Virus record (IMG/VR): IMGVR_UViG_3300014204_000154
Location: 1 to 64,000 of that record
DNA from: a virus
Taxonomy: Duplodnaviria > Caudoviricetes
Reading direction: 5' to 3' (one strand)
Length of the DNA: 64,000 nucleotides
Shown: in pieces, positions 4,208 to 30,090 of the stretch
Layout: each line of letters starts with the position of its first letter
Position numbering within the stretch: the stretch's first letter is position 1
The notes under the pieces: model-generated
What the model saw: the letters and a program-made list of their open reading frames with translations, nothing else
The model's database searches: none
Told to the model about the DNA's origin: nothing
Made by a program: the position numbers and the translations under genes

Positions 4208-4255
4208 TCTGCTATCTCCTTTCGTTGTTTGTTGGCGCCCTCGCTCCACCCGCGC

Positions 4256-15315: not shown

Positions 15316-16314
15316 TTAGAAAATCCCCGGACTATTTTTGATAACTGCTATTTTTGTTTCTTCAATTCCCATTCCAGACAAACGACATCTAGCAGCGACT
15401 TCTGCCGCTTTTAGACTCAAAATGACCAACTCAAACAGAATCTTATATGAAAGATATTCTCCATTGACTGGAGAATGGCCAAGCATCGGAGGAACGTCAG
15501 GATATATGGAAAAACCATTTCTTTTTAATTCAACATAATCAAAATTTCCCCTCACATTAATGATCTTGAGGAATGGGTTTTCTCTTACAAGCTTGGCTAT
15601 ATTCCCAAAATCATATCTTTCATTGTTGACGAAATCAGCGAAAATAACAGCATCAATCGTCTTATAAGATCCATCCCAATCAGAAGTGTGGCCATTGATA
15701 CTCCATACAATATCGATTCCAAGATTGTTAAACACCTGGACCACATATCCACCAATTTGAGAATCTGTTATGATAAGGAATTTCTCATTCCATACAGCCA
15801 TTCCCGCTTCGAATAACAACTTCAAGATCTTAAAGCCTACAGATAAGAGAAGGCTGGATTCATCGGTACCAACATAAAGGATTTCTTTTTGACGACATGC
15901 CTCCAGATCAACGTCTTTCTCCCGATATTCGAATGGCATCATCATCATTGGGATAACAGCAGTGGGTTTCATTCGATTAATGAAATACGAATCGATTGGG
16001 CGAACCTTTCCTGAATTCATCACAATGTCCGCTTCTCCCGCTCTCGGAAAACGAGGCATGACCCAACAGATCTGATCTTCTTTTTTGCCAATCAATTCTT
16101 TTGCCAACTGACAATCGGCAGCATCGGAAGAGGATAACACTGGAGAATAGGCAAAAACCTTGTTCGCTCCTGCCCAAGCCGCAATTAATGGAACAAATAG
16201 ATATGGTCCATTTGCCCATTCCGTAAAAACGCTTAAACCGGCCAAATTCAGGCCGGTCTCAGCGATCCGTTTCTGCGCATACCTTTTCATCTCAAAAGGC
16301 GATATCTTATCCAT
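15316..16314 (-). CDS. Hypothetical protein of the sugar cluster (possible Rossmann-like fold)
   Basis: 332 aa, coupled to the deacetylase gene. V.TE.A.GPY and VRPID..DVDLEAC segments recall uncharacterised proteins of polysaccharide loci. Confidence 0.45.
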   Translation of the reverse strand: MDKISPFEMKRYAQKRIAETGLNLAGLSVFTEWANGPYLFVPLIAAWAGANKVFAYSPVLSSSDAADCQLAKELIGKKEDQICWVMPRFPRAGEADIVMNSGKVRPIDSYFINRMKPTAVIPMMMMPFEYREKDVDLEACRQKEILYVGTDESSLLLSVGFKILKLLFEAGMAVWNEKFLIITDSQIGGYVVQVFNNLGIDIVWSINGHTSDWDGSYKTIDAVIFADFVNNERYDFGNIAKLVRENPFLKIINVRGNFDYVELKRNGFSIYPDVPPMLGHSPVNGEYLSYKILFELVILSLKAAEVAARCRLSGMGIEETKIAVIKNSPGIF

Positions 16315-16993
16315 CTGGAACCTCCGTCAAGAATTTGAAGATGTCTTTTCTTTGTCTGGTTAAGATTTCCAACAATATTGATCCAACACCAAACTCAGAC
16401 ATATTTCCATTCCATCCCCACTTCTCGATACCAGAGATATTATCTGATTTTGCGTGTCGTTTAAAGATATTATAACGCGCCATCGTTAAAGAATTCAAAA
16501 AAATGTGGATTGGATGGAAACACATGATCTGGATTGGATTGTCTGCTCCAACATCACCTAACATCCAAGCATCGTCAGCCCAGGTATAGGGAATGCGCCA
16601 AATAGTCTTATCCCCATATTGCTTCCGATATGGTCTGGCATTCGGATGATAAACACTACTATCAACCAACAACCCCTTCATGGCAAATAGCTCCGCCAAT
16701 TCCGCGGACCAAATCATGCCGTGAGTCCTGACGCATTTGGCCATAGGGAAGATGGCCAATAGGTTATCCATAATGGCCAAATGATTCTTGCCTTGCGTGC
16801 TCCCCGCACGAAAATTGGGGTGAATTCCGACCTCGATTAAAGGGTGCTCCGATAAGCGCCGGAGCGCCGGAGAATCGTGAGTCATGAACCATGTCGATTT
16901 GGTTCCAAGCGTCTCCAGATATCCAAACGTTTTTTCAATAACCGGATCTTGTGCCCAATCGGTATCAAACGTAAGGATCGCGTTACTCAGCAT
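16307..16993 (-). CDS. Polysaccharide deacetylase-fold protein (WbmS-like)
   Basis: ILTFDTDWA, TWFMTH, EVGIHPNF and VRTHG motifs. Confidence 0.75.
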   Translation of the reverse strand: MLSNAILTFDTDWAQDPVIEKTFGYLETLGTKSTWFMTHDSPALRRLSEHPLIEVGIHPNFRAGSTQGKNHLAIMDNLLAIFPMAKCVRTHGMIWSAELAELFAMKGLLVDSSVYHPNARPYRKQYGDKTIWRIPYTWADDAWMLGDVGADNPIQIMCFHPIHIFLNSLTMARYNIFKRHAKSDNISGIEKWGWNGNMSEFGVGSILLEILTRQRKDIFKFLTEVPDG

Positions 16994-17952
16994 TCTGATC
17001 TTCCCTCTTTCTTCATCAATCTTCTTCTGTTGGAATCAATAACCATCTCTTTCTTAAAATCGAACAAGCCTTGTCTGTAATCGTATCGGGGTGACCATCC
17101 CAATTTGCAGACAGCCTTGTTGATGTTGAAAATACAATTCTTCTTCCGAACCTCTGGAAGATCCCTCCGATAGATAATTTGAGGAGTCTTGAGAGGATTC
17201 CCAAACACTTGAATGATCTCCTTCACTTCATCTTCAATCGTATAACCCATCCCGGAACCAATGTTGAATGTCCCGTGTTCCTTGGATTTAAGCGCCGCAA
17301 CGAAAGCTGAACAAACGTCTTTGATATATATCATGTCCCGCTTCGTTGATGGAGGATCGCCCCAAACCTCGATATCTTCTCCATCAATCGCTTTCCGAAT
17401 GAACTGATGAAAAGGCGAATTGTAATGGGTATCCCGCGATCCATACCCCCTGATATTGGAAAGGCGCAGCGAAATTCCCTGAACAACTCCTTCTCGATCA
17501 TATGCTTCCACCATCTTCATGGCCGCGATCTTAGAAGCGATAAACGGGATGGCGTTATGCGCCGGATCAAAGGAATTGGTCCCAAAGACGCAATAGTCCT
17601 CGTGTTCGCTTACGAGGGGGAACGGCGACTTGTTTTGATCCGAATGGGTCATGGCATAAACGATTTTCTTGATCCCGGATCTTCGGCACATCTCCAGAAC
17701 ATTGTATGCCCCGAAGGAATTGACCCGGAAATACTCCTGGGCATGGTGACCATCGATCATAAGCAACGCGGCCAGATGGACAACCGCATCAGGTTTGAAC
17801 TTTTTGTCTTGAAAAAAAGAATCAATGCTTGATGGATTTGTAACATCCAATTCTTCCCGACCTGGAGTCATTACTGTCCAACCTTCTGCCGTAATGGCCC
17901 GGACAAGATATCTGGCAATGAATCCATGTCCACCTGTAATCAAAACTTTCAC
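16987..17952 (-). CDS. NAD-dependent nucleotide-sugar epimerase/dehydratase (extended SDR, atypical FxxxK)
   Basis: TGGHGFIA, VHLAA, FIASK, LRLSNIRG and RDMIYIKD. Start moved to GTG 17952 (SD GGAGG). Confidence 0.85.
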   Translation of the reverse strand: MKVLITGGHGFIARYLVRAITAEGWTVMTPGREELDVTNPSSIDSFFQDKKFKPDAVVHLAALLMIDGHHAQEYFRVNSFGAYNVLEMCRRSGIKKIVYAMTHSDQNKSPFPLVSEHEDYCVFGTNSFDPAHNAIPFIASKIAAMKMVEAYDREGVVQGISLRLSNIRGYGSRDTHYNSPFHQFIRKAIDGEDIEVWGDPPSTKRDMIYIKDVCSAFVAALKSKEHGTFNIGSGMGYTIEDEVKEIIQVFGNPLKTPQIIYRRDLPEVRKKNCIFNINKAVCKLGWSPRYDYRQGLFDFKKEMVIDSNRRRLMKKEGRSEC

Positions 17953-17954
17953 TT

Positions 17955-19061
17955 TTAATCCTCCTCTTCTTCCAAAAATCGAAATGGGATAACATAGAAA
18001 TATGGCCAACTCCGCAAACACATTTGTCTCGATAGACCAACGGGAACACCTTCATACATCCGCGTGTAATATTTGTAAGTGGTCCGGATCGCACCGAATT
18101 GCTGTTTGAAATGAATCACGCCATCCATCCCCTCCGGGAGCGATCCGCCCCAATTCCAATACCGACAACCCATTGAAGACGCATTATAGAAGGCGTAATA
18201 GATCAAAGGGTGTAACGGATTCTGGGAACGGTATTTCAATGATATTGCTGGCGTCATATAATCCACGGTCTTGTTATAGAACTTGATTAGAAGACATGCG
18301 GCCGGATCGCCATCCATCAATGAAACAGACAATGAATAATCCTTCCCTGCTTCGAACCTATCCCGGAGGATATCAAACTCAGCCATCTTTATTGGCGCTC
18401 CAACAGCCCCCATATTTTCGGCATGCATCTGTTTCAGCAATTCAAAATCTTCGAATTGATTATACCGGATTTGGAAACGATCCAGAGAAGTTTTTATTTG
18501 ATTGCGCACCTTCTGGTTTATCATTCTCATAAACTTAGTATTGTAGTCTTGATTCATCGGAGGAATTAACGACCGCATCCCAACTCGTTCATCAATCATT
18601 AACTCCTCGAAAATACCTGTTTGTACCATCAATTCTTCCCAGGATCGGTAGAACTTATCATCCCAAGGAGGAGAGATAATAGTTGCAGAGAAACAATCAT
18701 ATTTACGCGCCAAGACATAATAAAAATAATTGATCATCATAACCTTGACACTATTAGACGTTGCTATTACTCCCGGATTTGATCCGAACCATGGCATGGA
18801 GTTCAAAACATTTCCCCTTTTGGAACGGGAGACGAAAGCCGGCAAAGCACCAACCAATCTCTTCTCTTCATCATATGCAACCAGATAGGTTGGAAAACAA
18901 GCTGGTCCATGGCCGCCAATTCCTTCGATCTGACGGCCGCTAAGAAGACATTGAAGAAACTTCCGAAACTTCAATGAGGCATTGAACATCGATGTATCAA
19001 ATGAATTGACAAAATTGATCCAATTCAGTTCGTCTTCCGGCCGCATCTCTCGGATTTCCAT
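17955..19061 (-). CDS. GNAT / FemAB-like acyl- or aminoacyl-transferase
   Basis: SMPWFGSNPG, KVRNQIK, M.AVGAP and YWNWGGS..GVIHFKQQFGA pattern typical of FemAB-like proteins in polysaccharide loci. Start moved to ATG 19061. Confidence 0.7.
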   Translation of the reverse strand: MEIREMRPEDELNWINFVNSFDTSMFNASLKFRKFLQCLLSGRQIEGIGGHGPACFPTYLVAYDEEKRLVGALPAFVSRSKRGNVLNSMPWFGSNPGVIATSNSVKVMMINYFYYVLARKYDCFSATIISPPWDDKFYRSWEELMVQTGIFEELMIDERVGMRSLIPPMNQDYNTKFMRMINQKVRNQIKTSLDRFQIRYNQFEDFELLKQMHAENMGAVGAPIKMAEFDILRDRFEAGKDYSLSVSLMDGDPAACLLIKFYNKTVDYMTPAISLKYRSQNPLHPLIYYAFYNASSMGCRYWNWGGSLPEGMDGVIHFKQQFGAIRTTYKYYTRMYEGVPVGLSRQMCLRSWPYFYVIPFRFLEEEED

Positions 19062-19062
19062 T

Positions 19063-20076
19063 TTATCTCCCCTTCTGCGAAACGTACCATGCAATGGTTC
19101 TATCTAACCCTAATTTCATCCCAATCCTATGCTCAAACCCCAGAACGTCCTTGGCCTTCAAGATGTTGGCGATATGCCGCATAACGTCTCCCGGCCGGGA
19201 AGCCTGATGTTGAATCTTTTTTGTTGTATACCCTTGACCATGCATTAAACTAACAATCTCCTGGACCAGCCAGAGGATCGAAACATCATGCCCGGAAGCA
19301 ACATTGATTATCTCTCCCTTTACTTTGCAAGGATACATTTCGGCCATCATAATCGCTGCTCGAACGGTATCGGCGACATAAATGTAATCCCGCGTCTGAT
19401 GGCCGTCGCCGAAGATAACCGGCGCTTTCCCATCCAAGATCCGATTGATGGTTAATGGAATTATCCCAGCATAGGAACCCGCGTTCTGGCGCGGACCATA
19501 GTTGTTAAATGGTCGAATGATTGAAATGTTGCAGCCGAAGGTCCGGACATACGACATACAGATCAAATCTCCAGCCGCCTTGCTGGCCGCATATGGCGTG
19601 GACGCTTCCAGCGGGTGCTTCTCGCACATGGGTTCATATTGAGCTGTCCCATAGACTTCCGAAGAGGAGAAGTGGATCAAACGTTGAAATCTCCCCTTCC
19701 AAAGTATATAACAAAGATTGTTAACAATAGCGACATCTGCATCAATATTTTGACGCGGTTGAGTTAGTGATTGCGGAAGAGGCAAGACGGCAAGATTGAA
19801 AACAATCTCTGGAGAAATACGTTTGATAAACCCAGACAGTTCCATCAAATCACAGGCATCTATCTTTGCAAATGGAACTGCATCTGATAAAAAATTCCCT
19901 CTGGTCCATGAATTCATTGCGACAATCTCTTTGGGAAGGTTTTCCAACTTCCCTAAAGACAAATCATCGACAACAGAAACCTTGGCACCAACTGCCAACA
20001 ATCCATCAACAAGATGCGATCCAATAAATCCCGCACCCCCAACAACTAGCACTTTCTTCCCGGATAGGCTTTCCAT
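19063..20076 (-). CDS. NAD-dependent nucleotide-sugar epimerase/dehydratase (extended SDR)
   Basis: GGAGFIGSH, FSSSEVYG, YAASK, RPFNNYGP, DGHQTRDYIYV and RPGDV. Confidence 0.9.
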   Translation of the reverse strand: MESLSGKKVLVVGGAGFIGSHLVDGLLAVGAKVSVVDDLSLGKLENLPKEIVAMNSWTRGNFLSDAVPFAKIDACDLMELSGFIKRISPEIVFNLAVLPLPQSLTQPRQNIDADVAIVNNLCYILWKGRFQRLIHFSSSEVYGTAQYEPMCEKHPLEASTPYAASKAAGDLICMSYVRTFGCNISIIRPFNNYGPRQNAGSYAGIIPLTINRILDGKAPVIFGDGHQTRDYIYVADTVRAAIMMAEMYPCKVKGEIINVASGHDVSILWLVQEIVSLMHGQGYTTKKIQHQASRPGDVMRHIANILKAKDVLGFEHRIGMKLGLDRTIAWYVSQKGR

Positions 20077-20328
20077 ATCACCCCCCTACATTTTAGTCTG
20101 AAGTTATTATACCGTGGATGAGGGTTTTCTTTGAATTTAATCGATTTTGGACGTGGATGGGATTGAATGGGGGAATATTTTTTATACCTGAAAAAATCAC
20201 ACAATCTCATTAACTCATGAAATGAAATGCCACTATAAGAAAGAGAAAAGCTGCCCAATATTGAATCATTGGCGCAATCTTCATCTCCAACAACACTACA
20301 TGTTGCGGGATAATATGGTGCCATATTA

Positions 20329-20613
20329 TCAATCTCCCCAGACTTGATTCTGCGGATCTACGAAATGATGGAACATTCCCTGACCCACCATTTCGGCATC
20401 GGCGAAGATTGGCCCCATTCCCGGTTCATCCAGCTGCATCTGGACGCTGATCAATTCCGTATATTCCACGATCCGACCGTCAACCAGTTCCGCAAAGGTC
20501 CGGTCCCGGCCTTCGTCCCTGAGCTTGCGCCATTGAAGCTTCGAAAAATACAGATCCCCCGTAATGTCCACCTTCGATCTTACCACACCCAACTGAACTC
20601 CTGCCATCGTCAA
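20329..20613 (-). CDS. Hypothetical protein (94 aa)
   Basis: ATGA-coupled to the aminotransferase stop. Confidence 0.55.
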   Translation of the reverse strand: MTMAGVQLGVVRSKVDITGDLYFSKLQWRKLRDEGRDRTFAELVDGRIVEYTELISVQMQLDEPGMGPIFADAEMVGQGMFHHFVDPQNQVWGD

Positions 20614-22481
20614 TTCCCTTTCCCCGTTATCCCCAGATTGTTGACCACAAGATTCTGAAACATTGGCAACGATATCGCGTTGTCAAACAAAAGATCTGAA
20701 ATGGGAAATGTTGCCCCTTTTCGAATATATTTCTGAAACAGCGGCTGACGATGGCATGCATAAGTTCCAATCCCCGTCTCCATTCCCTGAGTACCAAACC
20801 ACTTGATTGCTTCGTCCCTGTTCCAGTTCTTTAGAAGGCAAACGAAAGATTGATACGCATGCCGTTTATTGGCAAGCGCTACCGGAGGAATGATTTCAAA
20901 CTCTCCTCCATCTGGCCGCAACCAAGTCGCTGCTTCGATAATCCTCCGCCAGTCGTTTGCGATCTTCTGACGTTCTTCAATAATTGAATCCAGCCGGCGC
21001 ATCTGAGCCACACCGATGGCTGCGGTCAAATCGCTCATTTTGAAGTTGAATCCCATCTCCGTGAAGGAAGGGACAGCCCCCCGGCCATGAGCATCTTCTA
21101 TGCCAAAGTTTGAGGCTTTTCTGACATAGTCTGCGATGGCTTTATCGTCAGTCGTAATAAAGCCGCCTTCTCCGGTGGTCAAAACCTTCCGGGCATGAAG
21201 AGAGAAGCAACCAACGTCGCCCAATTTCCCAGCCGGAAATCCGAAGTGTCTGGCCCCCAGAGCGCAAGCCGCATCTTCGACCACCTTCAAGCCAAATCTC
21301 TTCGCCAATGAGGTAATGACCTGAATGTCAACCATCTGGCCAAAGAGGTGGACCGGGATGATGGCCACAGTCTTGTCCGTAATCTCACGGGTGATCAAAT
21401 CGATATCGATGTTGTATGTCCTTTCGTTCACATCGACAAAGACCGGCTTCAACCCCGCCATGATAACCGCCAGCGCCGTTGCCGGGAAGGTATAGTCAGG
21501 CACGATGACCTCCGATCCCTTCTTGAACCCGAAAGCCATCAGGGAAAGGTACAGTGCCGCAGTACAGTTGGAAACCGTCACAGCGTACTGACACCCCGTC
21601 TCGGCACAAATCATCGCTTCCAATTCGGCGCACTTGGGTCCGCGGGATACCCACCCCGAAACCATGACCTTGCGAACCTCCTCAAGATCATCAACCTCGA
21701 AATATGGTCTAGCTAATGGAATCATATAATCATCCTCCTTTCGATTGCAAAAACCATTCTTGTCGCAATCCTCTTCAGAAACTCCAGCCCGAATAAGACT
21801 GCCCCGATCCCTACATGAACGAATTGAAATATCAATACCCATCGGATGGGCCAATAAAAGCTTTCTTCCATCGCTCAACGATGCTCTCATTGCAAGATAT
21901 TCTTCCCCATGCTCCCCCAGACACGCACCAAGATCCTCCAAATGAAGAATCTTCGGCTTCATGATTTCTCCTCTTTCGCATTGAACACATGGCAAAATGA
22001 TCCGCCGCGCTGGATTCCCAATAACCCTCCATCCAGATGGGATATCCTCTGTCACAATTGTCCCAGCTCCAATCAGTGCCTTCTCTCCAATCACAACGCC
22101 TGGAAGAATTACAGATCCAGCGCCGATAGAAGCGCCTTGCTGAACCAATATCTTTCCCCAGCCATCCTTTCCCTTCGAAGGAGGATATTTGTCATTGGTA
22201 AAAACGCAGCCCGGCCCGATAAAACAATCATCTTCGATTGTCACGCCTTCTGGAATAAAACAATGAGCAGCGATGCGAACGCAATTGCCGATAACAACTC
22301 CAGGACCAATCTCAACGAAAGATCCGATATTACAATTGGCGCCAATGATACAATTGCCATAAATATTGCAAAGTTTTGGATGCCAGATTTTTGTTGTTCT
22401 ATGAATCCATGGTCCGAGAGGATCATATGATGGATTGTAGCTAGTATTGATATGATTGAAAGGAAAAGGAGGGTTGTTCAT
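20610..22481 (-). CDS. In-frame fusion: LbH N-acetyltransferase (WbpD/WlbB-like) + 79-aa unknown + DegT-family sugar aminotransferase (WbpE/WlbC-like)
   Basis: Hexapeptide repeats and FTNDKYP in aa 1-170; DAACALGA and FSLHARKVLTTGEGG (PLP Lys) from aa 253. Internal SD+ATG sites at 21962 and 21725. Confidence 0.9.
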   Translation of the reverse strand: MNNPPFPFNHINTSYNPSYDPLGPWIHRTTKIWHPKLCNIYGNCIIGANCNIGSFVEIGPGVVIGNCVRIAAHCFIPEGVTIEDDCFIGPGCVFTNDKYPPSKGKDGWGKILVQQGASIGAGSVILPGVVIGEKALIGAGTIVTEDIPSGWRVIGNPARRIILPCVQCERGEIMKPKILHLEDLGACLGEHGEEYLAMRASLSDGRKLLLAHPMGIDISIRSCRDRGSLIRAGVSEEDCDKNGFCNRKEDDYMIPLARPYFEVDDLEEVRKVMVSGWVSRGPKCAELEAMICAETGCQYAVTVSNCTAALYLSLMAFGFKKGSEVIVPDYTFPATALAVIMAGLKPVFVDVNERTYNIDIDLITREITDKTVAIIPVHLFGQMVDIQVITSLAKRFGLKVVEDAACALGARHFGFPAGKLGDVGCFSLHARKVLTTGEGGFITTDDKAIADYVRKASNFGIEDAHGRGAVPSFTEMGFNFKMSDLTAAIGVAQMRRLDSIIEERQKIANDWRRIIEAATWLRPDGGEFEIIPPVALANKRHAYQSFVCLLKNWNRDEAIKWFGTQGMETGIGTYACHRQPLFQKYIRKGATFPISDLLFDNAISLPMFQNLVVNNLGITGKGN

Positions 22482-22501
22482 ATTATCGAGTCTCCATTTT
22501 A

Positions 22502-22605
22502 TGGTTCATAGGAAAGGATTTGAACCTTTAATGCGCTGGTTTTGGCTACAGTTAAGATTGGTGGATTTCACGGTCGTTCTCATTTATGGTAGTTTAAACC
22601 TATGG
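22502..22605 (-). ncRNA. tRNA-like element or degenerate tRNA (possible CCA anticodon)
   Basis: Acceptor CCATAGG/CCTATGA (6 pairs plus C1.A72), T-arm AAAGG-TTCAAAT-CCTTT, encoded ACCA end. No recognisable D-arm, an imperfect anticodon stem, and 104 nt long. Confidence 0.4.
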
Positions 22606-22652
22606 GTTGCTTGCCATATTTGATCTATCACCAATCTCATATTATATAAAAT

Positions 22653-22729
22653 TGGTCGAGGCGGCAGGATTTGAACCTGCGACATCTTGCTCCCAAAGCA
22701 AGCGCGCTACCGGGCTGCGCCACGCCCCG
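22653..22729 (-). tRNA. trnP: tRNA-Pro (TGG)
   Basis: CGGGGCG/CGCCTCG acceptor, CTTGC-TTTGGGA-GCAAG anticodon arm, GCAGG-TTCAAAT-CCTGC T-arm and encoded CCA; 77 nt. Confidence 0.95.
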
Positions 22730-22741
22730 GTTTAAAACAAT

Positions 22742-22790
22742 GCCTTCCGGAGGTAAAGTGTTTCAATCAATAATAACTCCTCCGGAAGGC
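22742..22790. repeat. 12-bp perfect inverted repeat just upstream of tRNA-Pro
   Basis: GCCTTCCGGAGG (22742-22753) and CCTCCGGAAGGC (22779-22790). Confidence 0.8.
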
Positions 22791-22931
22791 CAAAGAACAT
22801 CGTCATAATCCCCAAAAGGTGCGTATGGCCGCCGCCTCTAGTTAATCATTGGTCGATCCTCCATATTCAAGTTGCTTATAATGGCCCTTTTTGATCATTT
22901 CATTCCTGCTTTTATTCAACCGGATAAAGAT

Positions 22932-22942
22932 ATTATACCCTG
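22932..22942 (-). promoter_or_regulatory. CAGGGTATAAT promoter motif upstream of the tRNAs and sugar operon
   Basis: Minus strand AAAAGCAGGGTATAAT; the same 11-mer occurs at 50759-50769. Confidence 0.55.
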
Positions 22943-22954
22943 CTTTTCTGTTTC

Positions 22955-23944
22955 TTAATAGATATTTTTCGCCCCAATAAAACCATTCTGTTGCGCTTGA
23001 CGATTCATTATCAAATCAATCAGGTACATATACCTCTTGATGATCGTGCGTGTATTGAAATTGGTGTAGGCAAAATCCTGACTCTCCTGACTCAAGAGGA
23101 GTCTCTGCTGAAAATCCATATGACAGATTTCCCAGATCTTCTGTTTCAACGTTTCTTTCTTGATATGGATCGTCGGTGATTCCGGATACATGGAGAGAAT
23201 CCACGGATCAAGACAACTCATGACCAGATGACCCATCAGCATCGACTCAATTCCGGAGATGCCCCATGCTCCGTGAAGACTGGTGAAAGTGACCCAACTG
23301 GCCCTTTTCCGATCAAGGCAAGCTTCGTTCTTGATCCCCTGGATAACGTCCAATTCAACCTTCTCCCCTTCCGCCCGAAGTTCATCAACCGCCTTTTTCA
23401 GAAGATCATACCTCTTCAGCGGCGATCCAGCTGACCCACAACAGATCCTGACCGGCTTTCTATCTTCCATAATGGAAGGGTCAATCCCCGGCAAGTCGCA
23501 AAACGGCATATCCCCATACCGTGTAAAGTATGATCCCAAATGGTAGAAAGCACCGGGAAGGAGAGAGGCAATGGACCAGTCTGTGCCGGCGATCGCTGCG
23601 ATTCCAGAATTGGCATGAAATTTGGCAATCTCTCCCGGATTGTTTCGCAACTCTGATCCATAGTATTTGATACAGCAATTGTCCTTCGTAATGATCTTGT
23701 TCCAATCGATTCCCGGCCATCCGATAATACCCCGGCCAAAGTGGAAGAAATCGCACTGCTTCACCCATGCAGTCGCTTCTTCCATCGCTTCCTTCGTATT
23801 GACAATAATGTCCCTATCATATGACAGGAAATCGTCTGTTCCAATGATGCATCTGGCCTGATGCGGAGTGTACTTGTTGATGGCCCTCATAAGCGCCGTT
23901 GGCTGTCCCGCAATATTGTAGTCGCTGATGATTGCTATCTTCAT
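22955..23944 (-). CDS. GT-B glycosyltransferase (GT4-like)
   Basis: CDFFHF, YYGSELR, SPLKRYD and GAWGISGIESMLMG (Ex7-type sugar-binding region). Confidence 0.7.
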   Translation of the reverse strand: MKIAIISDYNIAGQPTALMRAINKYTPHQARCIIGTDDFLSYDRDIIVNTKEAMEEATAWVKQCDFFHFGRGIIGWPGIDWNKIITKDNCCIKYYGSELRNNPGEIAKFHANSGIAAIAGTDWSIASLLPGAFYHLGSYFTRYGDMPFCDLPGIDPSIMEDRKPVRICCGSAGSPLKRYDLLKKAVDELRAEGEKVELDVIQGIKNEACLDRKRASWVTFTSLHGAWGISGIESMLMGHLVMSCLDPWILSMYPESPTIHIKKETLKQKIWEICHMDFQQRLLLSQESQDFAYTNFNTRTIIKRYMYLIDLIMNRQAQQNGFIGAKNIY

Positions 23945-24068
23945 AAAAATAACCTCCTCAATGCCGAATCAAATATGGCATCAAGATGTTCGAACGCGGA
24001 AATGGCACCCAATATAATCAAGCACCATTTAATGATTTTGCCCAATCCGCTGCGAAACGTCTTGTGAG

Positions 24069-24293
24069 TCATGAGCGAACCTTCCCTTTCGAAAGACGCA
24101 TTGGCCAATCATGGATCATTGGATCGCATTTTTGATCCACGCCCCTAAGATTCATAAATTCTTTCAATGCTTCTACCATTGGCGCCGCATTACTGGAAGA
24201 GGAACAAATCAATTTCTCTTTGCGGGTGGTTAAAAAACCCGCAAAGTCGAATAAAACCCCAGATACAACATGGTCCAAAGATTCTTGACTCAT
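24069..24293 (-). CDS. Hypothetical protein
   Basis: Likely start ATG 24293 (MSQESLD...), within ORF-track 24069..24437. Confidence 0.5.
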   Translation of the reverse strand: MSQESLDHVVSGVLFDFAGFLTTRKEKLICSSSSNAAPMVEALKEFMNLRGVDQKCDPMIHDWPMRLSKGKVRS

Positions 24294-24310
24294 CTCTTTC
24301 TCCTTTTCAT

Positions 24311-24535
24311 TTATACCCCGAACCACCGGAGGATCTTGATAAGCATGTTGAGTAAATCCAGAACTGTCTGGACTATGCCAACAATGACCAGATATGAAAT
24401 GGCCATCTTGACACCAAACTCTTTCCAGGCAACCCACTTTCCCCGAACCTGCTTAAACTTCACTCTCAACTCAATCTTCATTTCATCACCCCATTCATCT
24501 TCAGGATAATCTCCGTGATCCAGGACGGCCACCAT
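24311..24535 (-). CDS. Small hypothetical protein with a hydrophobic C-terminal segment
   Basis: MAISYLVIVGIVQTVLDLLNMLIKIL is a possible TM helix. Confidence 0.4.
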   Translation of the reverse strand: MVAVLDHGDYPEDEWGDEMKIELRVKFKQVRGKWVAWKEFGVKMAISYLVIVGIVQTVLDLLNMLIKILRWFGV

Positions 24536-25191
24536 TTATGGAGAAGGATAGCGTTGGGAATAATACAGTGTCCACCAATATTGCCAAGAGGAGCATGAAG
24601 AATATAACGCTGGTATTCTGGAACCCCCATGGCGCGATTCAGAGCATTGTAGTCTGAATCATACTCCATAATCCGATCATAATCCATCCCGATCATTTTT
24701 GCAGCCTTCCGGGATTGACGCGCAAACTCAATTGCCAGCCCATAAGCAGCGGTGGATCTGAGCTTCAAATATTCGGTTTGGCGGCTATCTTCCAACACTT
24801 TGACTTGAAACCCGACTTCCTGAAAGAACCAAACCGCCGTTTCATCCTGCGGAGCCATCCAGCGGGGCCAATGGAACATATAGCTGGCCATATTGTTGCT
24901 GTGCAGCGCCTCTATCGGGGAATGCACAGCGCCCAACTTTCGGCAAGTCCCCACCGGAACGGTAGAAAAGACGATGGTGACGATTGGCAAAAATCTCTCC
25001 TGCAATTTCTTAACGTCTTTTACAAAATTACTGGACCATGGAATGGCGATTAACAAAACCTCATCGCGGAAGGAAAAGCTGTCCACCACATATCCCTTCA
25101 CCGGATCGTGGAATCGAAGAGAATGGATATGTTTCATTGAATCAAAAAGACAATGGCCAACTTCTCCAGCGCCAACAATAATGCCTTTCAT
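24478..25191 (-). CDS. Compact UDP-sugar 6-dehydrogenase (UDP-glucose/GDP-mannose dehydrogenase family)
   Basis: GAGEVG, STVPVGT, HSP, EYLKL (catalytic Lys region) and IGGHCII (catalytic Cys). Only 237 aa. Confidence 0.8.
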   Translation of the reverse strand: MKGIIVGAGEVGHCLFDSMKHIHSLRFHDPVKGYVVDSFSFRDEVLLIAIPWSSNFVKDVKKLQERFLPIVTIVFSTVPVGTCRKLGAVHSPIEALHSNNMASYMFHWPRWMAPQDETAVWFFQEVGFQVKVLEDSRQTEYLKLRSTAAYGLAIEFARQSRKAAKMIGMDYDRIMEYDSDYNALNRAMGVPEYQRYILHAPLGNIGGHCIIPNAILLHKWWPSWITEIILKMNGVMK

Positions 25192-25605
25192 CTATCGTCT
25201 TGCCTCCTGAGTCTGAGTCTTTGATAACACCTTTGTCATCTCCTTCTCTGCTTGTTGTTCCTGGCGAATCCGCAAACAGATATCAAGGAGACCCTTTCTA
25301 GCGACCAGCACCACAGCCCAGATAGCGACACAACGGGCGCAGAAAGATCCGAAGACTTCCTTGACTCCAAAGAATGGAATGATGTGGCGCGGATCGGAAA
25401 CTGCCGCCACTGGCGCTTCGCCCTTCTTTTTAAGCTTCGCCTTCTTCTTGGCTTCCTCCACCGCTTCCTTGATTGTATTGAAATTGATCATTGGCTGGAA
25501 ATAGATCCGGAGAGGGACCGATTTGCTGTTCAAACAACGTGGGCATGAATCTCCATCAAACAATTCGTCGCAATCCAAGCAAATCTTGGCTGTTGATACT
25601 TTCAT
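25192..25605 (-). CDS. Hypothetical protein with an N-terminal Zn ribbon
   Basis: CLDC..CPRC. Confidence 0.55.
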   Translation of the reverse strand: MKVSTAKICLDCDELFDGDSCPRCLNSKSVPLRIYFQPMINFNTIKEAVEEAKKKAKLKKKGEAPVAAVSDPRHIIPFFGVKEVFGSFCARCVAIWAVVLVARKGLLDICLRIRQEQQAEKEMTKVLSKTQTQEARR

Positions 25606-25697
25606 CGATCAAATCCTCCTTAACAGAATAACAGGGAAATCAAATCAAGTCCCGGTCTTGACTAAATTATAACCCTGCTTTTGAAGATTCGCCGATT

Positions 25698-25898
25698 TTA
25701 TTTGTCCCTCTTGATTGATGGCTTAGCCGCGGGGATAAGCTCCAGCGCCTGATCCACCAGACCCGCCAGCGCCGGAATGGTCCCCGTTGCCTCTCTGGCC
25801 ATATCCTCGAAAGTGTTGTTGGGTTTCTTCCTCAGCGCGTTCCACTTCGCCACCGCCGCATCCGCCGCTTCCTTGATCTTCCGTTTCTCCTCTTCCAT
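25698..25898 (-). CDS. Hypothetical protein
   Basis: ATG 25898 spaced correctly from GGAGG. Confidence 0.5.
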   Translation of the reverse strand: MEEEKRKIKEAADAAVAKWNALRKKPNNTFEDMAREATGTIPALAGLVDQALELIPAAKPSIKRDK

Positions 25899-25900
25899 TT

Positions 25901-26338
25901 TCATTCCTCCATGATTTTCAAAATTTTGTTTTCCCATTCAAATGTGTATACAACCGCAATCCCGGCGTTGATTATCATTCTCGAACAGAGAAGGCATGGC
26001 TTGGCACAAATCAAATTTCCTGACACCATATCCTTCCCAACCAGATATAGCGTTGAACCAATGCACCGTTCTCTTCCCGCTGCGATAATGGCGTTGGATT
26101 CGGCATGAACGCTGACGCAAAGCTCATAACGTTCTCCCGGCTTCGCACCAACCTCGTTCCGTTTACAAGTATGAATATCACAACAATTTGTCTCTCCCCG
26201 CGGCGCTCCTGTATATCCAGTGCTGACAATTTGATCGTTTTTTACGATAACAGCGCCGTAATTCCGTCTAATACAAGTGCCACGCTCCAGAACAATCGTG
26301 GCAATCCGCATATAATATTCGATCTTGGATGGTCTCAT
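25901..26338 (-). CDS. dCMP deaminase (ComEB-like)
   Basis: RGTCIRRNYGAVIV, STGYTG, HAESNAI and PCLLC zinc motifs. Confidence 0.9.
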   Translation of the reverse strand: MRPSKIEYYMRIATIVLERGTCIRRNYGAVIVKNDQIVSTGYTGAPRGETNCCDIHTCKRNEVGAKPGERYELCVSVHAESNAIIAAGRERCIGSTLYLVGKDMVSGNLICAKPCLLCSRMIINAGIAVVYTFEWENKILKIMEE

Positions 26339-26970
26339 TTGTTTACCTTTTCAACGTTCTTTGCCTCGATGGCAAATTCCGCGTAAGTTGATTGATGCAT
26401 CCTCCTGCCCCAATCCTCATCTTCTTCCATCGGGTGCGGCTCCATTGAACACAACATATCAATGCCACGGATCATAACGCAAAGAATCTTGTGAGTTTTC
26501 TCGTTCCCTAGCTCTGGCGGTTCATATTCTGGCTGTGAATCCCACGTTCCACTACTCCATCCGCCAGAATAATAATTGCCTGTCTTCACAATGAAAGAAT
26601 CGACCACTTCAAGGATCGCACCTTTTAGGTGTGGTTTATCTGCGGTTATAATCCGCCTTTCCCGGCCACCAAACCCCTTCTGCTTGAGATATGCATAAGC
26701 CACCCCTCTCATGATTTCCTTATATTGTTTGGAAGCGGTTAGATCAATCTCCTGCATCATTAGCAATTTGAATCTGACCGGATTTTCCTCTTTGGGATCA
26801 ACTCCATTGTTAAAGACTTTTCGAATCAGGCGCAGAACGTCCTCTTTATAGATCTGTTCCACCTCCTTAAATGCCCCAAAAAGAGACAGCGGATAGCCGC
26901 ACCTTACATATGTTAGCGGTTCTATGACCCGTACCCTGTCCCCAACCCTTATGATGTCTTTACGGCCCAT
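26335..26970 (-). CDS. Hypothetical protein (211 aa)
   Basis: ORF coupled by an ATGA overlap to the deaminase. Confidence 0.6.
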   Translation of the reverse strand: MGRKDIIRVGDRVRVIEPLTYVRCGYPLSLFGAFKEVEQIYKEDVLRLIRKVFNNGVDPKEENPVRFKLLMMQEIDLTASKQYKEIMRGVAYAYLKQKGFGGRERRIITADKPHLKGAILEVVDSFIVKTGNYYSGGWSSGTWDSQPEYEPPELGNEKTHKILCVMIRGIDMLCSMEPHPMEEDEDWGRRMHQSTYAEFAIEAKNVEKVNK

Positions 26971-26982
26971 TTTTCGATCCTT

Positions 26983-27204
26983 TCACTGAACCGTAATTGG
27001 CCCAGCTGAATTCTGTTTTTCTTCCAAATATACATCGATGCTAATCGATGGGCAAATAATTCCTTTTTTCCCACTCCGAACATTAAGCATATCAAGCAGC
27101 TTTTGCATTTCCTCTCGGCAATGCTGGAATTGTTTCTTTAATTCCGGATCGGAGATAATCAGAGATTCCATCCAATAAGCTTCTTGTTCTTCTTTTGTTG
27201 ACAA
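26983..27204 (-). CDS. Hypothetical protein
   Basis: 73-aa ORF with SD AAGGAG. Confidence 0.5.
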   Translation of the reverse strand: MSTKEEQEAYWMESLIISDPELKKQFQHCREEMQKLLDMLNVRSGKKGIICPSISIDVYLEEKQNSAGPITVQ

Positions 27205-27209
27205 TGTAT

Positions 27210-27416
27210 TTACTCCTTAATATGCCATTTATCTCGATAAGCGATTTCCAACTTGACAAGATCATAAAGGTCTTTGAATTTCTCCTCGAACCATTCCTGT
27301 TCCAAGATCCAATTCAGATACGACTTCGGAACGTCACAGATCAAAACATCTCTATGCGCTCCGAAGGGGAATGGTTTATCTTCATAGGTCCGTTTGTACT
27401 TTGGATCAATTTCCAC
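27210..27416 (-). CDS. DUF3820-like small protein
   Basis: FPFGAHR..ICDVPKSYLNWI matches the PFGK..G..L..LP..YL.W pattern. Confidence 0.6.
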   Translation of the reverse strand: MEIDPKYKRTYEDKPFPFGAHRDVLICDVPKSYLNWILEQEWFEEKFKDLYDLVKLEIAYRDKWHIKE

Positions 27417-27774
27417 CTTTCTCCTCCTTCGCGGTCAGCGTCTGGGTTGCATAAACTGTTCCAAGATCCTCTCCCTTAAAGGATCTAAGTTTTGCCCTCA
27501 TATTAACTGGTTCCCCATTCTTATCGAATTCCCAAAATGGTTGAACATATCTTGTTCCCTCAACAATTTCCAAATCAAATGTTCTCTTCACTTCACCAGA
27601 TACGCCGTAAAGAGAAAGTTGAAATGTAACGGATTGGGGAGCCAATGGAATAACAACAGGCGGAAGAGAATAAGTCAATTTAACAAGGTTGGCCCTTTTC
27701 CGTATCCGCAAAAACAAAATAAATATCAAAAGATACAGAATAAGCCACAAAGACATCGTTTGAAATTGATCCAT
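27406..27774 (-). CDS. Hypothetical protein with an N-terminal membrane anchor
   Basis: LWLILYLLIFILFL followed by RIRKR. Confidence 0.55.
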   Translation of the reverse strand: MDQFQTMSLWLILYLLIFILFLRIRKRANLVKLTYSLPPVVIPLAPQSVTFQLSLYGVSGEVKRTFDLEIVEGTRYVQPFWEFDKNGEPVNMRAKLRSFKGEDLGTVYATQTLTAKEEKGGN

Positions 27775-27786
27775 TTCAATTCCCTC

Positions 27787-28044
27787 CTATGAAAAAAGTG
27801 CAGTTTGCATTCCGTGTAAGATTCCCTTTTCATCCAACCAAAGTGACTTTAATTCGGCATCATCTTTTATAACCCAAACTCCATCTATCCTAACGTCATA
27901 GTGAAGAGCCTTCCCTGCGATCCGAAAACGACAAACGCAACGGCCCAATCCACCCTTGATAAACTCTCCTGGATATATTTCAAGCCATCCTTGTCGGAGC
28001 AACCACCATTTGATCTGTTTTGATGTCATTGGGTCTTCGCCCAA
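27787..28044 (-). CDS. Hypothetical protein
   Basis: 85-aa ORF in the co-oriented run. Confidence 0.5.
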   Translation of the reverse strand: MGEDPMTSKQIKWWLLRQGWLEIYPGEFIKGGLGRCVCRFRIAGKALHYDVRIDGVWVIKDDAELKSLWLDEKGILHGMQTALFS

Positions 28045-28244
28045 TTCGTTGTGACATCTCTCTCGCTTTCCATATCAATCTTCAAATCGGATCGTAAAAG
28101 CTGTTCAACAGATCCATCCGGAAGACGGACCCAGACTTCATCGTCTCCACAATAACAAGATACCTTTACCAACCTCCCAATGAATGGATGTCCTGGCTTT
28201 ATAATCTCAGCGATCCGATAAAGAATGTCTGTTTTTAATGGCAC
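28026..28244 (-). CDS. Hypothetical protein
   Basis: 72-aa ORF in the co-oriented run. Confidence 0.45.
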   Translation of the reverse strand: MPLKTDILYRIAEIIKPGHPFIGRLVKVSCYCGDDEVWVRLPDGSVEQLLRSDLKIDMESERDVTTNWAKTQ

Positions 28245-28372
28245 AATAAACGCCCCATCAAATTATTTGGATTGGGCAGGTCCGGGCTGGCTACCAGATG
28301 CGGAAGGCTTCCCTATATTCGCAAGATTAACTCCTGCCCATTTCACTTATTATATCCCTGCCTGTTTATTTC

Positions 28373-29281
28373 TCAAAGAAAATCCTTCCCAATCTGGATC
28401 AACTGGTTCATCCCGCCCCGATATCCATACTTGTCGCTGTATCGATTCAGAACCCAAGTCAGATAAAACAGATCCTTCGGTTTGACCCCTTTGCCTTTTA
28501 GGATATCGGCATACATTCGATTGTAGCAGCCCTGCATATCGACCTTCATGATGTCGAATTCAACCGCTTGAATTCGTTCGGGCAAATCGATAGACCATTT
28601 CAATTGATCTGAACTGGGTCTGAATCCTGCCCGTATCCAATCTGTCGATGTAAAAATCCCCTCTTTCTTCATAGCCATCATTTCAAAAAGTTCAAATGTT
28701 TTTGTCTCTGCTGGCCGCTGTTCTGTATAAACAACCTTTCTTTCCTGAATACCCTTCGGTAAGACAATCCCTTCAAACTCCGCTCCCAGCTGGATTGCCA
28801 GATCGATGTAGTGGATGAAGAATTCATAGAGGTTTCCTCCAGCCAATCTGGGATCGCCCTTCCAGGTCTTGAAAAATTCCCCATCCCGGATCATGACCGC
28901 CTTAACCAGATCCGCCTTCTTTGGCAAATCCTTGATCCACCGAAGCTGAAGCACGATGTTGATTCTGTCATCGTCAATCGGCGGCTCCCACGGAAGGCAA
29001 AGCGGCTTCTCACAGATCACATACTTGCCATGATCCAAAGCCATCTTGACATGTTCCCGATGAAGATGAGTCGGCGAGCAGATCACGATATATTCGACAT
29101 TATCATACATGCTTTCTGTGGGCAGAGCCTTGGAACAAAGCAAAAGAGGGGTTTTCAAATCAACATAATTGTCCATAAATGCAGTATCATGGATCCACTG
29201 AAGCCTTCCACCAACCGCTTTAATGGCCTCCTTATGTCTGGCCGCAATCGTTCCGTTTCCGATCAATCCGAAGTTAATCAT
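28373..29281 (-). CDS. Gfo/Idh/MocA oxidoreductase, WbpB/WlbA-like (UDP-GlcNAcA 3-dehydrogenase type)
   Basis: FGLIGNGTIAARH, ICSPTHLH, ICEKPL, VLQLR and TWKGD...GG..IHYID. Start moved to ATG 29281. Confidence 0.75.
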   Translation of the reverse strand: MINFGLIGNGTIAARHKEAIKAVGGRLQWIHDTAFMDNYVDLKTPLLLCSKALPTESMYDNVEYIVICSPTHLHREHVKMALDHGKYVICEKPLCLPWEPPIDDDRINIVLQLRWIKDLPKKADLVKAVMIRDGEFFKTWKGDPRLAGGNLYEFFIHYIDLAIQLGAEFEGIVLPKGIQERKVVYTEQRPAETKTFELFEMMAMKKEGIFTSTDWIRAGFRPSSDQLKWSIDLPERIQAVEFDIMKVDMQGCYNRMYADILKGKGVKPKDLFYLTWVLNRYSDKYGYRGGMNQLIQIGKDFL

Positions 29282-30090
29282 GACTTCTTCTCCTTCTCCC
29301 AGAATAACTCCCATTTATGGGAATGGCTATTGTAACAGTCAATCGAACACTTATCAAAACAACTTGATGCAAAGACGATGTTGGAAAAACGATCAAACAA
29401 AAACTCCTTCTTTTCCGAATCAAGCCAGAAACAACGCCTAATCCTCAACTTTAACGTATGCCCCGGACCTCTTCCCATAATGCTCTCAATCGCCATTTTA
29501 CAACCATTCTTCGAAGCATGATGTTGAATTTGATAGCCAAGATTCTCCCCCAGATAGGTCCGGACCAAGAAGCAAAACTCAACCTGATCTATGAAGTATT
29601 TGGATGCAATTGGCTCCAACGACGAAATGAGGATTGGTTTTCTCGATAGCGCCATCATCTTCATCCAAGGAATATTCCAGCAGACAACCATCTTCCCGAA
29701 CACATTTGGATCTTTGATGTCGTTCAACTCCTCCACATCTTCGATGGAAAACAGATTGATATAAACCTCAAAACCCGGAGGGAATGGGCCATCTTTCAGA
29801 ATCCGCTTGTAATCCCCTATCCTGAGATTGGTTCGAAAGTTATCCAAGCAAGTATTGAAAAAGATCCTATTAAATGAGGACCAATCAAACAGGCTGGAAT
29901 CTCCAACGCCAAACATGATAATAGAGTGTGTCCTGGAATACTCCCAGAGAGACGGAAAGAGCGCCGCAACCATTTCAACATCCATGATCTTTGGATCTTG
30001 CCGCGGCGCTTCACAATCCAGATGACAACGATTCAAACAACCCTGAACCACTTCCAGAAATATTCCCGTTTTTCGATTCATCATCAACAT
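29278..30090 (-). CDS. Cys-rich hypothetical protein, possibly a divergent radical-SAM-like Fe-S protein
   Basis: LEVVQGCLNRCHLDC (CX3CX3C) near the N-terminus and CFDKCSIDC near the C-terminus. Confidence 0.35.
   Translation of the reverse strand: MLMMNRKTGIFLEVVQGCLNRCHLDCEAPRQDPKIMDVEMVAALFPSLWEYSRTHSIIMFGVGDSSLFDWSSFNRIFFNTCLDNFRTNLRIGDYKRILKDGPFPPGFEVYINLFSIEDVEELNDIKDPNVFGKMVVCWNIPWMKMMALSRKPILISSLEPIASKYFIDQVEFCFLVRTYLGENLGYQIQHHASKNGCKMAIESIMGRGPGHTLKLRIRRCFWLDSEKKEFLFDRFSNIVFASSCFDKCSIDCYNSHSHKWELFWEKEKKS

Follow-up and report, generated by a model that had tools for sequence, protein, structure and literature searches.

The pathway logic for making 2,3-diamino-uronic acids is already known from bacteria. 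The closest described system is that of Pseudomonas aeruginosa and Bordetella, in which WbpA-B-E-D(-I) and WlbA-D lead to UDP-2,3-diacetamido-2,3-dideoxy-uronic acids, and the uronic acid is the established substrate of both WbpB and WlbA. Giant viruses encode amino-sugar synthesis of their own, which supplies the glycans of the particle. The DNA analyzed here (the window) comprises the first 64 kb of the 83,665-bp IMG/VR record IMGVR_UViG_3300014204_000154, which has an estimated completeness of 94% and represents an uncultivated phage of ~84 kb. Its minus strand carries, from ~30090 to 15316 and between the terminase and portal genes, a cluster of genes for sugar metabolism.

A first-pass annotation had described this cluster as a near-complete WbpA/B/E/D set. 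The B and D functions were retained in the present analysis, the A function was found only in an altered, truncated form, and the E function was not recovered. A WbpB-centred amino-sugar pathway, probably for a 2,3-diamino-uronic acid, is nevertheless supported in a phage. The fuller reading is that a late-operon module converts host UDP-N-acetylhexosamine (UDP-HexNAc) to a 2,3-diamino sugar that is N-acylated and probably a uronic acid, and that this sugar is put on proteins of the phage particle; it is given a probability of about 0.45. New are the placement and conservation of the genes in phage morphogenesis operons, a phage-only family of truncated dehydrogenases, termed mini-UGDH after the UDP-glucose dehydrogenases (UGDHs), and a deacetylase that is paired with a FemAB-family enzyme.

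Two predicted sugar dehydrogenases of the phage cluster

The open reading frame (ORF) at 28373..29281 (minus strand), with ATG at 29281 as the likely start codon, is predicted to encode a WbpB/WlbA-type NAD-dependent sugar 3-dehydrogenase of the GFO/IDH/MocA fold (PF01408). As a single sequence it matched P. aeruginosa WbpB (PDB 3oa2) at only 2.5e-10. When a profile of five phage WbpB-like copies (A2) was searched against the PDB, 3oa2 was retrieved at 1.4e-30 with 110 bits and Thermus WlbA (3o9z) with 96 bits, versus 62 bits for the MocA enzyme that ranked next. The alignment with 3oa2 covers profile positions 1-225 of 253 and chain residues 3-290 of 318, that is, nearly the whole chain. The Rossmann GxGxxA, the EKP lysine motif and the C-terminal KSWKGDP...GG...H..D are all present, the phage motif FFK(T/S)WKGDP being aligned to YLKSWKGDP of WbpB (YLKSWKGDPRKS), and the invariant positions of the profile are G19, G21, E102-K103-P104, W151-K152, G159-G160, H168 and D171. 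Because of these scores and the near-full alignment including the motif, membership in the WbpB/WlbA family is supported at the sequence level, and a C3 oxidation step of the WbpB type is predicted. The oxidoreductase with a TWKGD motif that had been proposed at this position is thereby corroborated.

The second dehydrogenase, the mini-UGDH of 237 aa at 24478..25191 (minus strand), gave no match in Pfam, NCBIfam or PHROG. Its family profile (A1) reached the UDP-ManNAc dehydrogenase 4r16 at 8e-8, as well as other UDP-sugar dehydrogenases. The AlphaFold2 (AF2) model had a predicted local distance difference test (pLDDT) score of 93, and its top Foldseek matches were UGDHs, with query-normalized template modelling (TM) scores (TMq) of 0.71-0.78 over the N-terminal and central domains. 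Comparison with E. coli WecC by hhalign gave a probability of 96%, with STVPVGT aligned to STSPVGS, an E..K helix in common, and IGGHCI aligned to VGGHCI, which in WecC presumably holds the catalytic cysteine. The putative catalytic residue of the phage enzyme is the corresponding Cys209 in the GGHC motif. Among 48 members, G7, G9, G12, S76-T77-V78-P79, G81, H97, E140 and G207-H208-C209 are invariant and K143 is kept in 47. The protein ends ~25 residues past Cys209, whereas WecC runs 150 residues further.

By profile, model and hhalign, the mini-UGDH is thus a predicted truncated and distant relative of the UDP-sugar 6-dehydrogenases that comprises their NAD and central domains. Its annotation as a UDP-sugar 6-dehydrogenase stands for the ancestry, as indicated by profile, fold and GGHC motif, but not for the architecture, since a protein of 237 aa without a UDP-binding domain departs from the three-domain arrangement of UGDHs (PF03721, PF00984 and PF03720). 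The possibility that a single dehydrogenase had been broken up into the upstream 137-aa ORF, the mini-UGDH and the downstream 122-aa ORF was also considered and dismissed, because members of the family are consistently ~220-260 aa long and the flanking ORFs contain neither a UGDH signal nor PF03720.

The family comprises at least 796 clusters at 50% identity (threshold E <= 1e-30), and relatives in IMG/VR lie on at least 181 viral contigs. No match was obtained by tblastn with two mini-UGDH queries in 50,697 deposited phage genomes, nor by a profile search at 1e-12 in 401 sampled Pseudomonadota genomes, while the same profile scored 3.8e-63 on a phage contig within a metagenome-assembled genome (MAG). 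The family is large and looks phage-specific. Some members are fused to left-handed β-helix (LbH) acetyltransferases. Fusions with HNH/NUMOD homing endonucleases are present in some mini-UGDH genes (P0079, P0081), which is characteristic of an invasion of phage genes by mobile endonucleases. If read correctly, the family offers enzymology a natural test case of a UDP-sugar dehydrogenase that works without its nucleotide-binding domain.

A full-length UGDH was found in 0 of 16 viral loci with a WbpB-like gene, and the mini-UGDH is paired with the WbpB-like gene in all six informative loci of the window's clade; five distant WbpB-like phage loci have neither the mini nor the full-length form. 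In one related phage (L009:10723-11166), a NADAR-domain protein is encoded directly after the mini-UGDH, and the ORFs at this place in the window and in L002 are unrelated to it.

Fused aminotransferase, tailoring enzymes and proposed scheme

At 20610-22481 the aminotransferase and ACETYLTRANSFERASE share one 623-aa ORF, with an LbH and a DegT part. Pfam and PDB matches within this single ORF bear out the DegT aminotransferase and LbH acetyltransferase annotated there. A linker of ~80 aa connects the two parts. Every related phage instead encodes them as two genes, which flank a small zinc-ribbon ORF, so the fusion is specific to the window. Between the linker and the separating small ORF of L002 there is no homology.

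The N-terminal part of the fusion is the LbH N-acetyltransferase domain (21957..22400, minus strand; Hexapep PF00132), whose best PDB matches are FdtD-like 4mzu (3e-31), 7s43, QdtC 3fs8 and WlbB 3mqg (3e-22). It is 37-44% identical to products of bacterial LbH genes adjoining wbpB, and its match to the solved enzymes begins at residue 28, so that a PglD-type N-terminal domain would not fit in front of it. These similarities support an acetyltransferase of the QdtC/FdtD/WlbB kind. Most LbH enzymes of this kind, though not all, act on 3-amino sugars, and the kinship was hence treated as a lead only. The C-terminal part is a DegT-family pyridoxal phosphate (PLP)-dependent aminotransferase domain (20646..21725, minus strand; PF01041 at 2e-94), in which the DegT fold with the PLP lysine is present and the motif SLHARKVLTTGEGG was read. 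It is the single DegT match in the whole phage genome.

Two extended short-chain dehydrogenases/reductases (SDRs) had been recognized in the cluster, and both indeed match PF01370. SDR2 (19063..20076, minus strand; 1.9e-53) has an intact S-Y-K triad (SSSEVYG, YAASK). Its best PDB matches are 6dnt, 6wjb and 4zrm, of which 6wjb is presumably PelX itself and 6dnt presumably another UDP-GlcNAc 4-epimerase. Entry 6wjb is cited in the preprint on the PelX UDP-GlcNAc C4-epimerase (10.1101/2020.05.26.111013). SDR2 reads S-S-E where RffG has T-D-E and ArnA has T-S-E and thus lacks the dehydratase Asp; its sequence most resembles those of C4-epimerases or C4-oxidising enzymes. SDR1 (16987..17955, minus strand; 3.5e-39) is atypical in having Phe at the place of the catalytic Tyr (FIASK), and the same change occurs in its L009 orthologue (FISSK; L009:19268-20182).

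In Bordetella, WbmG and WbmH have T-Y-K, and WbmF is without the Ser/Thr (PMC2279256). Among the 60 PDB matches listed for each phage SDR there is no chain with the name WbmF, WbmG or WbmH. Because of this and the differing triads, the likeness to WbmF/G/H that had been proposed is unsupported, SDR2 being nearest to C4-epimerases and SDR1 being without the Tyr.

The WbmS-like assignment fared better. The ORF at 16307..16993 (minus strand) encodes a predicted polysaccharide or sugar N-deacetylase, which matches PF22537 at 2.7e-44 (151.8 bits, model positions 1-184 of 186) and WbmS itself (PDB 3hft) at 3e-27, so that the deacetylase fold is matched over its full length. Phage L009 encodes a WbmS-like deacetylase and an LbH acyltransferase as one fusion protein (L009:16333-17550; 405 aa), which suggests an acyl-swap enzyme. 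A Pelagibacteraceae locus (L087) contains in order full-length WbpA, WbpB, an aminotransferase, WecB, an SDR, an ABC transporter, another SDR, WbmS, a formyltransferase, an unknown gene and a phosphoglycosyl transferase, and the UGDH counterpart there carries all three domains. The L009 fusion and the WbmS-formyltransferase pair of L087 fit the loss of one N-acetyl group and its replacement by re-acylation.

For the window, the nearby candidate for such re-acylation is a FemAB-family transferase of the GNAT fold (17955..19061, minus strand; TIGR03019 at 2.5e-12, PF13480 at 0.0018). PF02388 and/or PF13480 are carried by 40 of its 42 homologues (the window's own protein excluded), in agreement with the FemAB-like GNAT called earlier, and no PDB sequence match was found for it. 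By analogy with the family, the acyl donor may be an aminoacyl-tRNA. If this reading holds, the combination of a WbmS deacetylase and a FemAB-type enzyme points to a way of making N-aminoacyl amino sugars, whose enzymology is not known to be established.

Two further proteins are encoded in the cluster. A conserved 94-aa ORF lies between the aminotransferase and SDR2 (20329..20613, minus strand; no Pfam match), and copies with 42-47% identity occupy the same position in L002, L009, L083 and L084. The 332-aa protein p332 (15316..16314, minus strand), listed as an unknown in the first pass, still has no family match in Pfam, NCBIfam or PHROG. Its Atlas model resembles two-domain 2-hydroxyacid dehydrogenases/DpaA with a TM score of ~0.6 and unnamed bacterial clusters with 0.88, and no clear GxGxxG motif was found in it.

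The transfer of the sugar may involve p329, a 329-aa protein (22955..23944, minus strand) predicted to be a soluble glycosyltransferase (GT) of the GT-B fold, GT4-like. It has no Pfam or other family match, and its profile gave no PDB sequence match. Its Atlas language-model neighbours are GT1/GT4-like, and hhalign gave a weak match to a phage Glyco_trans_1_2 cluster. All Foldseek matches listed ahead of rank 39 are GT-B enzymes (PimA, PglA, BshA, MshA, WaaG), at a TM of ~0.5. The earlier GT-B call is in keeping with these matches but is tempered by the TM values and by the quality of the model, considered below. The protein is kept at 54-62% identity in L002, L009, L008 and L010.

The order of the module is conserved in related phages (L002/L105, L009/L102, L010, L099, L107 and L083-L085), whose large terminase subunits (TerL) are 63-71% identical. 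The order kept, from TerL onwards, is WbpB-like, mini-UGDH, a small ORF, p329, LbH, aminotransferase, a 93-aa ORF, SDR2 and FemAB, with module ends that vary between related phages. L083-L085 lie inside MAG bins (Omnitrophota, Paceibacterota and Sulfuricurvum), and their assignments were rejected as clues to the host, because L084 (Paceibacterota) and L085 (Sulfuricurvum) are binned in different phyla although their matches to window proteins are identical in nearly every gene. The placements, including that of the related contig in the Omnitrophota bin, are likely binning artefacts.

A comparable set also occurs in an unrelated phage (L058/L110; TerL 25% identical). There, the run L058:6776-16685 encodes a capsid protein, an SDR, a mini-UGDH, an aminotransferase, a WbpB-like enzyme, an LbH protein, a GT2-methyltransferase (717 aa), a WecB-like 2-epimerase and a GT1. 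By sequence similarity, the genes next to this capsid gene amount to a mini-WbpA/E/B/D/I set.

From these enzymes the following scheme can be proposed. Starting from host UDP-HexNAc, most likely UDP-GlcNAc, the mini-UGDH would oxidise C6, after which the WbpB-type enzyme, whose family is shown, would oxidise C3 of the presumed substrate. The aminotransferase half of the fusion would aminate the keto group and the LbH half acetylate the new amine, the two steps being considered consecutive because the domains are fused. SDR2 might then invert or oxidise C4. Based on the L009 fusion and the Pelagibacteraceae gene pair, the WbmS-like deacetylase is envisaged to free one amine, which the FemAB-family enzyme would re-acylate, possibly with an amino acid from aminoacyl-tRNA. 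Finally, p329 and the capsid-adjoining GT2 would transfer the sugar. No role is assigned to SDR1 without its catalytic Tyr, to p332 or to the 94-aa ORF, and we infer both the carbon that is aminated and the target of attachment.

Regiochemistry, destination of the sugar and genomic setting

A number of observations weigh against this scheme. The UDP-binding domain PF03720 was found in none of the six frames of the whole phage genome, and at the positions of UGDH Asn208 and Asp264, which are presumably catalytic, the mini-UGDH family has Thr/Leu and mostly Asn. In 80 loci, the mini-UGDH was also seen near DegT, LbH, SDR, NeuB, CMP-transferase, UDP-GlcNAc 2-epimerase, methyltransferase and GT genes; in other phages it often stands directly before a portal or adaptor gene and sometimes alone. 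Its presence in NeuB-type clusters and its lone occurrence indicate that its role may be more general. To these points are added the AF2 model of p329, which is of low confidence (pLDDT 63), and the LbH tree, in which no specific clade was resolved.

The aminotransferase contributes the remaining points. ArnB (190 bits, 7.7e-55) and QdtB (167 bits) precede WbpE (143 bits) in the PDB, perosamine synthases are also among the best matches, and the top NCBIfam models, all below their cut-offs, are all 4-aminotransferases; ArnB, PseC and perosamine synthase all score above WbpE. A maximum-likelihood tree was built from the window sequence, phage aminotransferases, E. coli ArnB and WecE, and five bacterial aminotransferases chosen by their neighbouring wbpB-like and LbH genes (synteny-defined WbpE type). 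The window aminotransferase and its orthologues in L002, L009, L083 and L084 form their own clade (100/100), which lies outside the WbpE-type clade (98/96), on the side of ArnB and WecE with weak support (91/89). L083 and L084 have a second aminotransferase, which does fall in the WbpE-type clade, and in these phages the orthologue of the window enzyme may do another job. With 143 versus 190 bits and a position outside the clade, the WbpE identity proposed earlier was abandoned.

The first-pass annotation had itself named grouping with unrelated pathways, for example those of 4-amino sugars, as a result that would speak against it. Such a result was obtained in part, for the aminotransferase; the WbpB-type and LbH parts hold. 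The acylated 2,3-diamino sugar is accordingly retained with reservations: the WbpB-type step, the LbH domain and the conservation of the module speak for it, and the aminotransferase outside the WbpE type and the SDRs that are not Wbm-like speak against it.

Some features of the dehydrogenase could suit a product without a uronic acid. If the mini-UGDH were not a sugar 6-dehydrogenase but served a different role general to phage sugar clusters, the product could be neutral UDP-2,3-diacetamido-2,3-dideoxy-hexose, formed by a GnnA/GnnB-like logic. This would explain why the UDP-binding domain is missing, why the mini-UGDH is found with NeuB/CMP-type clusters and alone, and why five distant phage loci have WbpB-like, aminotransferase, LbH and WecB genes but no UGDH. 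It is nonetheless judged improbable, as Cys, Glu and STVPxGT are invariant in the mini-UGDH and Lys is kept in 47 of 48 members, the GGHC motif is shared with UDP-HexNAc dehydrogenases, which are the closest relatives, the gene always accompanies the WbpB-like gene in the window's phage clade, and the substrate of WbpB and WlbA is the uronic acid.

The aminotransferase data bear on a different alternative, an Arn-like route with the amino group on C4. The mini-UGDH would make a uronic acid, SDR2 would oxidise C4 with or without decarboxylation as in ArnA/UXS, the ArnB-like aminotransferase would aminate C4, the LbH domain would protect the amine and the WbmS-like enzyme would deacylate it later as ArnD does, leaving the WbpB-like enzyme to a separate or additional step. 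The best PDB match to ArnB, the 4-aminotransferase models of NCBIfam and the weakly supported place in the tree agree with such a route. So do the S-S-E and Y-K of SDR2, which resemble the T-S-E of ArnA/UXS and not the T-D-E of dehydratases, and the L083/L084 phages, whose own WbpE-type aminotransferase and second LbH could serve the WbpB-like enzyme. However, the only aminotransferase of the genome would then leave the WbpB-type 3-dehydrogenase partnerless, and in L058, too, a WbpB-like enzyme has one aminotransferase as its partner, which is not of the WbpE type. Moreover, the LbH domain fused to the aminotransferase resembles enzymes adjoining wbpB, and the closest solved relatives of SDR2 are C4-epimerases and not decarboxylases. 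The C4 route is therefore considered unlikely, and amination at C3 in a WbpB-centred pathway is preferred.

For the destination of the presumed 2,3-diamino sugar, the position of the genes was considered. The terminase genes mark the upstream boundary of the block that contains the cluster (35597..37957, minus strand): the small subunit TerS at 37307-37957 (PF03592 at 6e-20) and TerL at 35597-37087 (PF03237 weak, 63-71% identity to related phages). Nearly all window genes are on the minus strand. In the direction of transcription, TerS and TerL are followed by a metallopeptidase with small ORFs, an N6/N4 DNA methylase (30630-31415, minus strand, directly upstream of the cluster), the sugar cluster, the portal, a 2041-aa protein, the major capsid protein (4796-5731, minus strand; PF20911) and a GT2-family glycosyltransferase just after it (3002..4249, minus strand; PF00535 at 1.6e-19), which is a candidate partner using the sugar. 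The portal (13810..15303, minus strand), supported by DUF4055 at 8e-34 and tblastn to phage portal genes, forms the downstream boundary. With TerS, TerL, portal and capsid present in a record that is 94% complete, the phage origin assumed for the DNA is confirmed. Identity to deposited phage portals is at most 31% by tblastn, and the DNA of the window has no match among deposited phages.

In this genome, neither phosphoglycosyl transferases (PF00953, PF02397) nor a Wzx-type flippase (PF01943) were found, which indicates that the phage cannot build a lipid-linked glycan by itself. A TET/JBP dioxygenase or a ThyA-like hydroxymethylase, the makers of the known acceptors for DNA glycosylation, was likewise not found in the genome. 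As lipid-carrier and base-hydroxymethyl enzymes are lacking and a GT2 lies by the capsid gene, virion glycosylation is favoured. Attachment to virion proteins is the best-fitting of three uses, judging from the cluster's place between terminase and portal in the morphogenesis block and from the GT2 after the capsid gene.

The second use would be the same chemistry with the product entering host envelope glycans (lipopolysaccharide, capsule or S-layer) during infection, where the changed surface could, for example, exclude other phages or stop progeny from re-adsorbing to debris. Bacterial counterparts all serve surface polysaccharides, as illustrated by L087 with its ABC transporter and phosphoglycosyl transferase, and serotype-converting phages are a well-established precedent. 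This use is regarded as rather unlikely, since lipid-carrier enzymes such as a phosphoglycosyl transferase or a flippase are lacking from the phage genome, the cluster sits in the terminase-portal-head block with a second glycosyltransferase after the capsid gene, and many unrelated phages have mini-UGDH clusters abutting portal, adaptor or capsid genes.

In the third use, the GT-B enzyme would place the sugar on bases of the phage DNA, in the manner of phages with glycosylated 5-hydroxymethylcytosine or 5-hydroxymethyluracil. Phage GTs and sugar epimerases that install HexNAc, hexuronic acid (HexA) and other sugars on DNA provide a precedent (bioRxiv 10.1101/2023.12.21.572611), the genome encodes a dCMP deaminase, and T4 alpha-glucosyltransferase is among the Foldseek matches of p329. 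The T4 enzyme is, however, ranked below many GT4 enzymes at the same TM, no TET/JBP or thymidylate-synthase-like hydroxymethylase is present to make the acceptor, and the cluster lies with morphogenesis genes and not with replication genes, which makes a DNA target highly improbable.

Attachment to the particle being preferred, a more far-reaching proposal can be formulated, namely that uncultivated phages possess a private truncated 6-dehydrogenase that functions without a UDP-binding domain, use it to run whole rare-sugar pathways within their morphogenesis operons, in this case for an aminoacylated 2,3-diamino-uronic acid, and coat their capsids with the products, as a widespread and undescribed form of virion glycosylation. 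In this extended form the proposal is doubtful. If true, tailed phages beyond mycobacteriophages would glycosylate their particles, and with exotic self-made sugars, which would bear on the recognition of phages by hosts, predators and immune systems.

The remaining features of the region can be described briefly. All ORFs listed in the first pass exist on the minus strand at the coordinates given for them, but the span of 15316-29281 is not a continuous sugar module, as ~3 kb of it (25192..28244, minus strand) belong to a variable insert, which encodes a dCMP deaminase (25901-26338; PF00383 at 2e-16) besides small ORFs, lies outside the conserved module and is not shared with relatives. The WbpB-like gene of L002 directly adjoins its mini-dehydrogenase gene. 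The ORF at 27210-27416 is the only one of the insert with a counterpart, in this one relative. A tRNA-Pro (UGG) was located by ARAGORN at 22653..22729 (minus strand). An orphan 270-aa protein, p270, is encoded at 29278..30090 (minus strand) and has no Pfam, NCBIfam or PHROG match and just one homologue (36% identity) among 5.8 billion proteins. It contains two CX3CX3C motifs, near both ends, and its stop overlaps the start of the WbpB-like gene (ATGA), so that the two are translationally coupled. A scan for promoters and terminators performed no better than on shuffles, and hence no operon boundaries are claimed. PHROGs returned zero matches for the 10 cluster proteins submitted, and single-protein IMG/VR scans with the WbmS-like protein or the mini-UGDH found no relatives, for which alignments were needed.

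Comparison with described systems

Like the Wbp/Wlb pathways, the phage has a 3-dehydrogenase with the KSWKGDP motif, a DegT aminotransferase, an acetyltransferase of the same broad LbH kind and a UGDH-family enzyme with GGHC, to which phage L058 adds a WecB/WbpI-like 2-epimerase. In contrast to them, the phage dehydrogenase has no UDP-binding domain, the aminotransferase falls outside the WbpE-type clade and is fused to the acetyltransferase, and the genes are located in a morphogenesis block without genes for lipid-carrier assembly.

The Bordetella wbm O-antigen locus shares with the phage a WbmS-family deacetylase beside extended SDRs in a diamino-uronic-acid context, and the Pelagibacteraceae locus L087 has a similar arrangement of WbmS-family deacetylase and SDRs. 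Different from wbm (PMC2279256), the phage SDRs are not specific relatives of WbmF/G/H, as judged from the 60 PDB matches listed for each, SDR1 being without Tyr where WbmF is without Ser/Thr, and the phage deacetylase is paired with a FemAB-family enzyme instead of formyl- or other acyltransferases.

The E. coli Arn pathway (Ugd, ArnA-D) offers a possible order of uronic acid formation, C4 oxidation, transamination, N-acyl protection, GT2 transfer and deacylation, and ArnB is the best solved match of the phage aminotransferase. The phage differs from it in having a WbpB-type 3-dehydrogenase, an LbH enzyme and not a formyltransferase for N-acylation, a deacylase of the WbmS type, and no ArnT/E/F-like membrane proteins.

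Virion glycosylation in mycobacteriophages is the subject of Freeman et al. 2023, a study cited in PMC12619734. In common with those phages, the present one has virus-encoded glycosyltransferases among its structural genes. Mycobacteriophages reportedly encode glycosyltransferases only and use host sugars, whereas this phage would, in comparison with that account, encode a multi-step amino-sugar pathway of its own.

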